DNA of 64,000 nt from Thermoanaerobaculia bacterium (GCA_963816185.1 CAWFJJ010000008.1:256001-320000), one strand, 5' to 3'; numbered from the stretch's first letter, positions 4,531 through 55,960 are shown. Made by a program: numbers and translations. Notes: generated by a model from the sequence alone, not told the origin.

Positions 4531-5258
4531 CGAGCCTGCGGCGCAGGGCGGCGAACGCGCCGAGAAGGAGCGTCACCTCACGGGAGGTTGGTTTTCCGCG
4601 GCGCAGGAACGACTCGATCTCGGCCAGCACTTCCTTCGAGTAGCCGCGGCCAGGGTAGCCGGCCGAAGAGAGGGTCTCTTTGAAAGAGGTCAGGAGACGG
4701 CGGACGTCGCGTGAAGGCGCGGGCTGTTCTTCGGGTTTCGGCGTTCCGCGGCTTCGCCGCGGTGCTTTGAACGGATAGAGCAGAGCGAGCGCGACGACGA
4801 CCGCCTGCGCCACGTTCAGCGTCGGAAGAGCGGCCGCGCGTCGGGATCGTCAGGCGAGCGTCGCAGAGCCGCAGCTCTTCCGTCGTGAGACCGCCGCGCT
4901 CGGGACCGAACACGAGCGCGACGCACAGGCGGGCGCGGAGCGCCCGCGAAGACCGAAGAGACCGGGAGATTTCTTCGAAGGTAGTGGGAGGCGGCAGCCC
5001 ACGCGAGACGCGGCCGCGCAAGGACGTAATAGCCATCAGGGTGTCTGTAGAGGCGAGCAGCTCACCCCAGGCCGGGACGACATTCACCTTTCTAAGAAAA
5101 TCTTCAGCGCCGGATGCAAAAGCGACTGCGTCGGGGTGATCGATAGGCGCGCGCGGCTGGAGGAGCAGCAATTCCGCCCCGAAATTCTTCGCGGCCCGCG
5201 CCGCCGCCCCGAGATTGCCGGGGTTGTGCGTCCTGACGAGAACGACGCGAAGGGTCAT
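4490..5258 (-). CDS. trmJ: TrmJ/SpoU-family tRNA/rRNA methyltransferase; apparent 1-bp insertion near 4835
   Basis: [36 protein letters not shown]; the expected PTLNVAQAV motif continues in the adjacent frame (ORF 4490..4813). Confidence 0.8.
4962..5105. repeat. Intragenic inverted-repeat pair, copy 1 (in trmJ)
   Basis: CCGGGAGATTTCTTCGAAGGT (4962-4982) and CATTCACCTTTCTAAGAAAATCTTC (5081-5105); same motif family as 8689-8803 and 55731-55960. Confidence 0.8.
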
Positions 5259-5287
5259 GAGCGCGATCCTGGTCCAGAATGGCGCGC

Positions 5288-5491
5288 ATGTCGAAGCCAA
5301 GATCCGAGGACGAGCAGAAGGCCGTCGAGACGATCCTGTGGGCGCTCGGCCATCGCCTCGCGCGCCTGAGGGACGAGTACACGATGAAGGTTCAGCGCGG
5401 CGAGGAGCCCGAGGGCGTGACGAAGGGCTTCGAGATGGCGCTCCGCGAGATCAACGACATGCTTCCGCGGCGCAAGCGTTTCAGGGGCTGA
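5288..5491 (+). CDS. Small hypothetical protein (about 67 aa, helical)
   Basis: MSKPRSEDEQKAVETILWALGHRLARL...; GC3-biased codons; fills the gap between trmJ and the nnrS-like gene. Confidence 0.65.
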   Translation: MSKPRSEDEQKAVETILWALGHRLARLRDEYTMKVQRGEEPEGVTKGFEMALREINDMLPRRKRFRG

Positions 5492-5497
5492 AACTGT

Positions 5498-52806: not shown

Positions 52807-54873
52807 AAGCCCGTACTTCTCGATGCGCGAGTAGAGCTGGGCGCGCGTGAGGCCGAGGAGCTTCGCGGCCCGGCTCTTGTTGAAGCGCGCTTTCTTCAGC
52901 GCCTCTTTCACGTAGTCGCGCTCCAGCGACTCGAGGTCGAGGCCTTCGGGCGGCAAGAACGCGCCGGCAGGGCCCGGAGCGGCAGCGCGGGAAGCCGAAT
53001 CCTGGCGCGTGACGGAGATCGGGAGATGCGCCGCCGTGATCAGGCCGCCCTCCACGAGAATCGCGGCGCGCTCGAGCGCGTTTCGAAGCTCGCGCACGTT
53101 TCCGGGCCAGGGGTAGGAGAGAAGGAGCTCCTTTGCTTCGCGTGAGATGCCGGGCACGGGGCGGCCGACGGCCGGGCCGAGCTCGGCGAGGAACATCTCC
53201 GTGAGAGGCAGGATGTCTTCCGGGCGCTCGCGCAGGGGCGGCAGGTGGATCCCGAAGACCGAAAGCCTGTAAAAGAGGTCCTCGCGGAATTCGCCTTTCT
53301 CGATCGCCCGCGCGAGGTCGCGGTTCGTGGCCGCGATGAGACGCGCGTCGGTCTTCAGCACCTTCGTTCCGCCGAGCCGCTGGAACTCGTGCTCCTCGAG
53401 GACGCGCAGGAGCTTCGCCTGCACGGCCGGGCTCATCTCGCCCGCCTCGTCGAGGAAGAGAGTGCCGCCCGCGGCCTGCTCGAGCCGGCCCGGTTTTCCG
53501 CCCGTCGCGCCCGTGAACGCGCCCTTCTCGTACCCGAACAGCTCGGACTCGAGGAGCTGGTCCGGCAGGGCGGCGCCGTTCAGGGCGATGAACGGACCGG
53601 CCGCGCGCGCCGAGCTCCGGTGGATCGCCCGCGCGACGACCTCCTTGCCCGTGCCGGACTCGCCGGTCAGAAGGACGGTCGTCTCCATGGGCGCGACCTT
53701 GGCGGCCTGGACGAGGACTTCATGCCAGCTCTTCGACGTTCCCACGATGCGGCCGAACCCGCCGCGCGAGGCGAGCTCCTCGGAGAGGACGGCCACCCGC
53801 TTCTCGAGCGTCTCGGCCTGCGCCCGGGCGTCGGCCGCTCGGCGCGCCTCCTCGGCGAGGCGCTGATGGGAAAGGGCGAGCGCGACCTGGTCGGCGACAT
53901 GCTGGGCGAAGGGAATGTCGTCCTCGCTGTACGTGTTGGGCGTGCGCGAGATGAAGAGCAGGCCGCCCGCGAACTGCCAGCGGCCCTCGAAGAAGATGGG
54001 CACGCGCAGAATCGAGCGCGCCCCGTCCGCCGTGAGGTGCCGGCATTTGTCGGATGCGGGGTCGAGCTCGACGAGGACGTCCCGGACGATTTCGGTCGAC
54101 CAGTGCTCGCGCGCCCGGTCGGCGGGCGTCAGGCGGATCGGCTCGCGGATCTCCGGGAAGCCGGCGCCCGAGACCGCGTACACGCGGACGGCCGACCGGT
54201 CCTCCGTGAGAAGGCCGAGCGCCATGCGGTCGTGCGGAATGACCGGCCGGACGATCTCCGAGATGCGCTCGAAGACGTCGCGCACGTCGAGTGCCGTCGC
54301 GAGCGCCGGCACGAGAGCCTGCAGTCCTTCGTACTTCCGCCGCCTGTTCCTCTCGTCCGCGGCGAGGCGCTCGTGCTCGAACGCCATCGCGATGACATCG
54401 GCGATCGGCCGCACGAGCTCTTCGTCGTCCTCGCTATAGGCCCCCGGCTTCAGGCTCAGAAGGGTCAAATAGCCGCTGCGCGACGTGCCGGTGAGCGGCA
54501 CGCGAAGCATCGACCGGACCTTCGCGTCCTTGAAGCTCTGGTCGCGAGGGTAGGAGGTATCGAGGGTGGAGAGGAGATCGTCCGTTCGCCCCACGCGCAT
54601 CAGCAGGGCCCAGAGCGCGGGCGAATAGTCTTTTCGCGGGACGAGGCGTGCGTACGTGCGGCGGTCCTCGTCGTTCAGCGTCGGGCCCGCGATCGTGTAG
54701 AGGGAGAACCCTTCGCCCTCGTGGTTGTAGGTCACGGTCATCGCGTCGAAGGCGAGGACGCGCGCCGCCGCCGCCGAGATGCGCTGGAAGACGACGTCGA
54801 GCTCGAGCGTCTCTGACGCGACGCGGGCGATCTCCGAAAGCACCGGGACAAGGGCGGTCCTTCCCGACTCCAT
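52783..54873 (-). CDS. Sigma54-dependent activator, GAF-GAF-AAA+-Fis HTH (FhlA/NifA-like)
   Basis: [39 protein letters not shown]. Confidence 0.93.
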
Positions 54874-54915
54874 GGGGCGGTCATTCTAGGCCCCGCGGTC
54901 GACTACACTTCGGAG

Positions 54916-55925
54916 ATGCCGGTCTCGGGGGCAGCCCAGGATCTCGCCGAAGGCGTCCTTGCGGGGCGCGTGCCCGCCGTCGCGCGCGCGATCACGTGGG
55001 CCGAATCGGGCGATCCGCGCTTTCACGCGCTGCTCGCGCTCGTTTTTCCGCGAACGGGCGGCGCCCGCGTGACAGGCCTGACGGGCTCGCCGGGAGCGGG
55101 CAAATCCACGCTGACCGCCGCGCTCGCGCGCCGGGCGCGCGCCCTCGGGCGAAAGGTCGGCATCGTCGCGGTGGACCCGTCGTCTCCTTTCTCGGGCGGG
55201 GCGATTCTCGGCGACCGGATCCGCATGCAGGACCTCTATACGGATCCCGGGGTCCTCATCCGGTCGATGGCGACGCGCGGCCATCTCGGCGGCCTCGCGC
55301 GTGCGTCGGCCGACGCCGTGGACGTGCTCGACGCCGCAGGCTACGACGAGATCCTCGTCGAGACGGTGGGCGTGGGCCAGGACGAGGTCGAGGTCTTCCG
55401 GCTCGCCCAGACCTGCGTCGTCGTCCTGACGCCCGGCATGGGGGACGACATCCAGGCCATCAAGGCAGGCCTCATGGAGGTCGCGGATCTGTTCGTCGTG
55501 AACAAGGCCGACCGCGACGGCGCGGACCGCGTCGTGCAGGAGATCCTCCAGATGCTCGAGCTCGGGGAGCACGGCGCGTGGCTGCCGCCGGTCGTGAAGA
55601 CGGTCGCCACGACGGGCGCCGGCCTCGACGAGCTGGCCGCGAGGATCGCGGAGCACCGCGCGTTCCTCGACGGGCCGCAGGGCGCCGCGCGCAGACGCGA
55701 GCGGACGAAGATGCGAATTGAATCGCTGGTCAAAGAAGATTTTCTTAGAAGGGTAGAGAGGCTCCGGGGAGGCACGGGGGCCCTCGAGGAAGCCGCGGCG
55801 CGCGTGGAAGCGCGGATGGAAGATCCCGTGAGCGCCGCTCACACCCTGAGCGGCACGCTGGAGAAGGACGGCCGATCGCCGTCGCCCTCTTCACCTTCTA
55901 AGAAATCCCCGGTCTCCTCTCCCGC
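54916..55925 (+). CDS. meaB: Methylmalonyl-CoA mutase-associated GTPase MeaB (probably fused to downstream Mce)
   Basis: GSPGAGKST, VDPSSPFSGGAILGDRIRM, ETVGVGQ, NKAD; no stop at the domain end. Confidence 0.9.
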
Positions 55926-55960
55926 TCTCCTCCTCCTCATTCAACTTCTAAGAAATCCCC
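55731..55960. repeat. Intragenic inverted-repeat set, copy 3 (meaB C-terminus/linker) with an extra right arm
   Basis: Left arm 55731-55753; right arms 55882-55907 and 55938-55960 (CATTCAACTTCTAAGAAATCCCC). Confidence 0.9.

Follow-up and report, generated by a model that had tools for sequence, protein, structure and literature searches.

Four described systems come closest to the element that is our subject here, a short motif (the 12-mer TTTCTTAGAAGG) whose copies, which we call arms, stand largely as inward-facing inverted pairs in a Thermoanaerobaculia genome (G000), seven of them within the 64-kb stretch that we call the window (contig C8:256001-320000). In the excerpts of the cited papers on which we draw, the uptake signal sequences (USS) of Pasteurellaceae and the DNA uptake sequences (DUS) of Neisseriaceae arise by mutation and recombination, not by insertion, are rarer in coding DNA, where they fall on residues of low conservation, occur as intergenic dyad pairs and reach 0.8-0.9 per kb (PMC2817400). 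Excerpts likewise describe Pseudomonas REPINs as doublets with a distance of 71 bp, in which conservation is lower in the spacer than at the ends (PMC3116915), HIP1 sites as conserved within and between genes and thought to be linked to nucleoid structure (PMC5861425), and Rickettsia palindromic elements (RPEs) as inserted units of ~150 bp that fall into ten families (review, PMC10969869).

Judged against those excerpts, the motif resembles each system in part. Like USS and DUS, it is a lineage-specific short word, over-represented hundreds-fold, equally frequent on the two strands and rarer in genes, with an apparent origin in place at tolerant codons, a weaker extended consensus, intergenic dyad pairs and an abundance that differs among related lineages. 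It differs from them in its ~10-fold lower density (0.03-0.16 per kb), its palindromic core, and the placing of two thirds of its sites in strict inward pairs 45-300 bp apart, genes included; strict inward pairing is not, to our knowledge, a property of uptake sequences. With REPINs it shares inverted doublets, conserved ends of ~25 nt, a spacing of ~71-75 bp, a less conserved spacer, singles that are less conserved than doublets, and long vertical persistence. Unlike REPINs, it is found in G000 without a RAYT gene, is not restricted to extragenic DNA, appears to arise within codons, and forms pairs that lack compensatory changes and have unalignable interiors. Like HIP1 of cyanobacteria, it has a palindromic core, lies in genic and intergenic DNA, is conserved beyond neutral expectation and has no evident gene-level function, but it is far less abundant, polar through its asymmetric flanks, and organised in pairs. 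Like RPEs and MITEs (miniature transposable elements with inverted repeats), it is a palindromic repeat in frame within unrelated housekeeping genes, often in linkers; in contrast to these, only the ends are common to its copies, and some ends replace codons without insertion. We tentatively favour the reading that the arms are paired recognition sites for a predicted lineage-specific DNA-binding protein, sites that would evolve where they stand, shaped by selection or by a bias in transmission.

The window contains seven matches to TTTCTTAGAAGG at no more than one mismatch, against 0.03 expected from dinucleotide-preserving shuffles, and 0/100 shuffles reached that number. The arms, some of which extend beyond the 12-mer, are:

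5085..5105, minus strand: trmJ arm, upstream in the gene; 12-mer at 5088-5099 (minus) with one mismatch; encodes EDFLRK.
4962..4982, plus strand: trmJ arm, downstream in the gene; 12-mer at 4970-4981 (plus), TTCGAA variant; the minus strand encodes TFEEIS.
8689..8711, plus strand: left arm of the GltD-like gene; 12-mer at 8699-8710, exact; encodes KKIFLEG.
8772..8803, minus strand: right arm of the GltD-like gene; 12-mer at 8784-8795 (minus), exact; encodes SPSSPSKKSP.
55731..55753, plus strand: left arm of meaB; 12-mer at 55741-55752, exact; encodes KEDFLRR.
55882..55907, minus strand: right arm of meaB; 12-mer at 55894-55905 (minus), exact; encodes SPSKKS.
55938..55960, minus strand: extra right-arm copy in the meaB linker; 12-mer at 55944-55955 (minus) with one mismatch.

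A sequence-only reading of this DNA had proposed these arms, and direct reading finds all seven where it put them. The GltD-like and meaB copies do agree without mismatch over 23 bases (left) and 26 (right), the arms are indeed read in different frames, and the downstream trmJ arm (its right arm) is the TTCGAA variant, where TAA would give an in-frame stop. The polarity that had been proposed within pairs (an arm with four Ts first, one with three Ts second) is no rule, since both variants occur on both sides among 48 aligned units, the direction of the host gene left aside. Two genes in the G000 assembly, trmJ (at ~4750-4800) and the methylmalonyl-CoA epimerase gene (at ~56270), switch reading frame part-way, which suggests indel errors of the long-read assembly or pseudogenes; frame statements near these two changes are uncertain for this reason.

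Genome-wide, where we count as an arm any match to the 12-mer with at most one mismatch, the motif is strongly over-represented. G000 (an uncultured soil lineage of the phylum Acidobacteriota, class Thermoanaerobaculia; 5.09 Mb in 30 contigs, 67% GC, 95% complete) holds 149 exact copies, 414 at ≤1 mismatch and 843 at ≤2 mismatches, whereas eight scrambled words of the same composition give 0, 1-7 and 13-136, respectively, so the check for genome-wide excess that the sequence-only reading had suggested comes out positive. The 10-base core has 219 copies against ~1.2 predicted from base composition, and the exact 12-mer is even across strands (73 vs 76). The core is a 9-bp palindrome, TTCTnAGAA, with TTCGAA as another common variant, and TTCTTAGAA occurs 337 times when both strands are counted. 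The conserved stretch begins about six bases before the core and extends about nineteen beyond the core's start, with nothing conserved farther out: the outer side of an arm is a purine-rich run ending in GAT, and the inner side consists of GG, (T/G)GAA and further purines.

Our own rough gene caller (4,324 genes, 87% coding) places 120 of the 219 core copies inside genes, and arm density by the same calls is 0.33 per kb in tandem spacers, 0.23 in convergent spacers, 0.18 in divergent spacers and 0.053 in genes. A promoter or ribosome-binding site is ruled out, since the arms show no orientation bias toward the downstream gene (57 vs 68) and use both strands of genes.

Public sequencing runs, four of which we examined as assembled short-read contigs (depth ~2-6), provide an independent view of the trmJ arms. 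Contigs from two other runs span both arms (X2 record 11, 4861-5174; X3 record 19, 4932-5261), each with two substitutions relative to the G000 trmJ region, all of them outside the arms. Because two independent short-read runs span both arms, the arms are not an artefact of assembly or polishing, and the shuffles, scrambled controls and short-read contigs together rule out chance or artefact as their origin.

Arms are organised as pairs. Neighbouring arms no more than 400 bp apart in G000 face inward in 98 cases, outward in 6 and are in tandem in 25, so the pairing bias proposed for checking is a strong inward excess. An inward partner lies within 40-400 bp for 273/414 arms, and the spacing within pairs peaks at 73-76 bp with a tail to ~300 bp. 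A period of ~20-21 bp in the spacing is weak once paralogues are removed (4/500 jittered sets are as strong).

The interiors of the pairs have little in common. Most of them (166/202) have no relative among the other interiors, and the 36 that cluster belong to paralogous genes or to units bearing a second repeat family, which we call X. We rejected the possibility that interiors are captured from elsewhere in the genome: 36/192 match elsewhere, all of them paralogous genes or family X. Third-position GC is 0.78 in the interiors of in-gene pairs and 0.83 in the rest of the gene, and these interiors are mostly host coding sequence. The view that the spacers are unrelated to each other therefore extends from the window to the genome, and the view that the unit is not simply a cargo-carrying MITE holds, with interiors that are unrelated and, in genes, host-like.

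The two arms of a pair also show no sign of having changed together. When a left arm is compared with the reverse complement of its right arm, likeness within pairs equals likeness between pairs (all |z| ~2 or less), and we found no co-variation or compensatory change at any position relative to shuffled pairs. Since partners resemble each other no more than arms drawn from different pairs do, each arm is held to the consensus independently of its partner.

Family X itself is ~135 nt long, occurs at 43 loci in G000 with ~70-95% identity (e.g. C25:104876-105175 and C8:209112-209244), and has a long stem with compensatory changes between copies. One copy is present in 1.2 Mb of G003 (another species of the same genus) and none in 1.2 Mb of the outgroup genome G027, and it has no Rfam match beyond chance level.

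Whether arms were inserted or arose from existing codons can be read from orthologues, and trmJ gives the clearest case. Both arms are present, at corresponding codons, in all 16 orthologues found in the genus, and six outgroup orthologues have ordinary GC-rich codons, with no difference in length, at these sites. Measured from the SGA codons to the VFGPE codons, the genus has 186 nt and six outgroup genomes have 180-186 nt; the stretch is longer (189-204 nt, 204 in G000) in 4/17 of the genus rows shown. The DNA between the arms keeps the conserved SSLRGR motif, and the ancestral codons already half-matched the motif. Both trmJ arms thus appear, from these alignments, to have arisen in place around host sequence. 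The outgroup rows took in G019 and G024, and the conclusions hold without both.

At meaB, the two sides of the pair differ. The left arm lies in a conserved C-terminal helix that aligns without gaps to 12 outgroup proteins (LVKEDFLRR vs LLEERFRR-type), and its counterpart in G003 has four mismatches and zero indels. The right arm and the extra copy lie in the linker that connects MeaB with methylmalonyl-CoA epimerase and is particular to the genus, and the counterpart of the extra copy in G003 is degenerate. Comparison with orthologues bears out the suggestion that the trmJ and meaB spacers encode normal family sequence. As to the fusion itself, MeaB and the epimerase form one in-frame open reading frame in 16/17 other genus genomes (window positions 54916-56400), the linker has the right arm, as SPSKKS or a variant, in 15 of these 16, and MeaB ends before the linker in 12/12 outgroup genomes; in the G000 assembly, the two frames are not joined.

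The GltD-like pair sits in a linker of the protein, which connects its N-terminal Fe-S part with its FAD/NAD part. With junctions readable at 6/8 loci, this site has no element in the genus genome G001 or in G027, a left arm only in G003 (the right arm falls in a gap of the pairwise alignment), one left and two right arms in G012, and a fragment in one more genus genome.

For genes in general, outgroup comparison rests on 1.2 Mb of one genome, G027. There are 222 arms in genes, 105 of them in genes with a match in that sequence, where 71 arms are covered by alignment and 34 lie outside or between alignments. Compared with G027, the 71 covered arms comprise 17 that are ungapped (one of which falls in a conserved VDLxRNDLG motif), 21 with 1-3 gap columns, 30 insertions and 3 deletions. 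Both insertion and codon replacement occur on these alignments, and arms in linkers and intergenic DNA come with insertions. The proposal that the repeat overwrites codons accordingly stands in part: it fits both trmJ arms, the meaB left arm and 17/71 in-gene arms, but not the 30/71 that are insertions, nor the GltD-like pair, the meaB right arm and the extra copy, which are inserted linker DNA that is missing from other species or outgroups. The broader idea of a coding-compatible cis-element family conserved at the DNA level has fared well, and the family proves to be genus-wide and paired.

A family of Ser/Thr protein kinases (C24:602897, C28:51681 and paralogues) has an arm in place in the loop after VKVLP. 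It reads DFLEGEE, the outgroup sequence there is different and of the same length, and the arm is inherited through gene duplication.

Between species, most sites persist. When 59 sites of G000 were aligned to 1.2 Mb of G003, the motif was kept at 34, degenerate at 8, replaced by aligned non-motif sequence at 7 and absent by a gap at 10; some of the absent sites are one arm with the interior. In the reverse direction, from G003 to G000, 38/41 sites align. Identity over the 12 bases (47 ungapped sites in this one species pair) reaches 0.87 for genic and 0.80 for intergenic sites, compared with 0.62-0.71 in the flanks. One and the same site can differ between the two species, TTAG against TTCG, which is what a degenerate binding site would give.

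The phylogenetic distribution has a sharp boundary. Counts of the exact 12-mer in 121 genomes of the order, with G000 left out of the counts, are:

This genus (uncultured Thermoanaerobaculia): present in 24/24 genomes, 21-210 copies per genome.
Sister genus: present in 5/6 genomes, 1-16 copies per genome.
Other genera of the same family: present in 0/22 genomes.
Two other families of the order: present in 1/68 genomes, as a single copy.

The motif is confined to one genus and its sister genus, and the latter has the same inward pairs, spaced 63-80 bp apart. An exact 21-base form of the motif occurs at more than 115 loci in a collection of species, at least; the matches listed are almost all Thermoanaerobaculia/Acidobacteriota metagenome-assembled genomes, with single entries among them for Acidithiobacillales, Aquifex and 'uncultured bacterium'.

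We therefore consider what kind of element would have these properties. Apparent origin in place, conservation above that of the flanks, a palindromic core and independent constraint on each arm point to a duplex sequence that is read by a protein and kept by selection or biased transmission, while polarity, a favoured spacing and the example of trmJ suggest that the unit is the inward pair. In the reading that we tentatively prefer, each arm would be a double-stranded DNA recognition site for a predicted lineage-specific and probably dimeric protein, the asymmetric flanks of the palindromic core would give each site a direction, and the working unit would be two inward-facing sites 45-300 bp apart, mostly ~74-75 bp. 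Such sites would not spread by transposition; they would arise by substitutions at half-matching codons or, alternatively, by small insertions in linkers and intergenic DNA, and would then be retained through selection or transmission bias. Reading of the motif by a protein, bridging of two sites, and a benefit to the cell or to the motif are all steps that we infer. Two candidates named in the sequence-only reading, an uptake-like sequence and paired protein-binding sites, survive as this preferred class.

Natural competence is relevant to the uptake form of this reading. G000 has ComEC, DprA and ComEA-like genes, as non-competent control genomes equally do, so these genes do not discriminate. 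Among the ComEA-like HHH_3 loci, 2/3 (C29:11903-12486 and C1:554689-555318) have an arm or pair within a few hundred bases or in a linker, a proximity that is not significant by a rough estimate.

Several points weigh against recognition sites as the explanation. The reader protein is a prediction, and several hundred sites, some of them in housekeeping genes, demand a global function or drive. The uptake form leaves pairing unexplained, because inward pairs of strict polarity at 45-300 bp are not a known need of uptake. Paired arms are slightly closer to the consensus (0.40 are exact vs 0.28 of unpaired arms, p = 0.013), as a REPIN-type element predicts; the 10/59 sites absent from G003 include whole pairs with their interior, which a mobile doublet also predicts; and the uneven copy number (21-210 in the genus, 0-16 in the sister genus) resembles lineage-specific expansion. 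Family X, a truly repeated family, lies beside arms, with an arm within 150 nt at 25/43 loci vs ~7% expected by chance. Finally, genic and intergenic arm counts in G000 are approximate because the gene calls are rough, and some of the G027 matches behind the in-gene comparison have low identity and may be paralogues.

The strongest alternative, which we nonetheless consider unlikely, is a non-autonomous mobile element of REPIN or MITE type, in which a transposase binds the arms as terminal inverted repeats, pairs are mobile, single arms are decayed remnants, and in-gene copies are tolerated in-frame insertions, as with RPEs. This would account for inverted doublets with a strict polarity (98 to 6) and a 73-76 bp spacing, for the association with family X, for the closeness of paired arms to the consensus and for copy numbers that differ by lineage. 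It also fits the presence or absence of whole units between species (10/59 sites), the 30/71 in-gene arms that are insertions relative to the outgroup, and the fact that the 70-80 bp spacing class makes up 38% of intergenic pairs vs 14% of pairs in genes. It does not fit trmJ, meaB and at least 17 further genic places, where arms appear to have arisen without change of length in conserved protein sequence. Interiors also speak against it: because those of the 202 pairs are unrelated except for 36 in paralogue or X-bearing clusters, there is no sign of recent copying as a unit. Nor do the arms show the compensatory changes expected of such doublets, and the sites are conserved above their flanks, unlike those of a dead family.

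An enzyme for such an element was sought in G000. The Y1 transposase of REP systems (RAYT, PF01797) has no match there and is present in only 4/29 genus genomes, so the REP/RAYT candidate of the sequence-only reading fails a defining test. No TnpB was found in G000, and the ends or junctions that were examined in its DDE_Tnp_1, rve and IS110 elements lack the motif. Only 5 weak motif matches fall in the 60.8 kb that surround all insertion sequence (IS) genes found in this genome, and zero at the locus of its single DDE_3 gene. Inward arm pairs 0.4-5 kb apart, as an IS with arm-like ends would give, are not in excess in G000, and the few filled/empty junctions seen have no consistent target-site duplication. 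We rank the mobile doublet next to recognition sites because it fits the pairs and the gain and loss of whole units, but misses the in-place arms and has no enzyme found for it. On the alignments, the motif is not an ordinary transposable element: arms in several conserved genes appear to overwrite existing codons.

An element that acts in RNA is improbable. In this account, base-pairing of the two arms within a transcript would close a long hairpin around a variable interior, which might serve, for instance, as an RNase III site or a stabiliser. Pairs do fold into long hairpins whose base is formed by the arms, and interiors are somewhat more structured than nearby DNA (mean z -0.80 vs -0.11, p = 0.0015, for 70 pairs sampled from the 60-130 bp spacing range, with the interior including the complementary inner flanks). 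A spacing step of 20-21 nt would also equal one more helical turn in the stem. However, the absence of compensatory change between arms tells against pairing in RNA, as do the lack of orientation bias relative to genes, the one third of arms without a partner, and divergent, convergent and tandem spacers that hold sites equally. The window has no match to any Rfam family, which also counts against an RNA element.

Templated short-patch overwriting seems slightly less probable still. Some enzyme with a fixed template, perhaps a reverse transcriptase or recombinase, would write the ~25-nt arm, as inward pairs and without cargo, onto half-matching DNA, and the element, selfish or domesticated, would spread by rewriting codons, not by transposition, a possibility to which we give equally little weight. 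It would explain why the match of in-place sites to the extended consensus covers both flanks of the core, why both trmJ arms look written around unchanged host sequence, and why inward polarity is strict. We know of no such mechanism, however, turnover between species is slow, and overwriting is not needed: stepwise substitution is enough, because the ancestral trmJ codons half-matched the motif.

Invertons, in which the arms would be recombinase sites of small invertible segments, some of them inside genes, are the least credible alternative: inverted repeats do flank short segments with a common repeat across many loci, but in-silico inversion leaves the frame open in only 29% of 101 in-gene pairs vs 63% of frame-matched controls (z -8.5), which disfavours the recoding intragenic invertons once proposed for these genes, many segments have only ~50-60 bp between arms, and the hosts include conserved housekeeping genes. 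Contigs of the four runs showed no strand-changing or excision joints at arms, a weak negative given that contigs drop minority forms.

Some further observations concern where the motif is found. The densest 10-kb bin of arms (C28:470000-480000, 7 arms) holds miaB, parA-parB and an SAHH-like gene, with a metK-like S-adenosylmethionine synthetase gene just past it at ~481-482 kb (all names are from translations), and we saw no specialised gene in the bin. The 3' end of the 16S rRNA and the next bases (C1:445508 region) resemble the reverse complement of an arm, having TCACCT and TCTAAG in common with it, with a few extra bases in between. It follows that the forward arm holds a Shine-Dalgarno-like AAGGTGA; the resemblance to the 16S end may be a coincidence. 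A 17-base form of the motif is present in 54 viral contigs, once each and never paired, which is about the chance number by a rough estimate. A literature search by sequence found no description of the motif (only unrelated primers), Thermoanaerobaculia repeats not having been searched as a topic.

If the arms are indeed paired recognition sites, one genome-wide paired signal would link words that arise in place, such as uptake sequences and HIP1, with doublets such as REPINs. Oriented inverted pairs could then form around existing coding sequence by substitution alone, and we caution that an inverted pair need not mean a transposon. The motif would also shape proteins, since it sits in the genus-wide MeaB-epimerase linker and in the variable GltD-like linker. 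For a group without genetics, it would give a handle on a DNA-binding, uptake or chromosome-organising protein, and the sharp phylogenetic boundary of the motif means that this reader protein may be findable by phylogenetic profiling.

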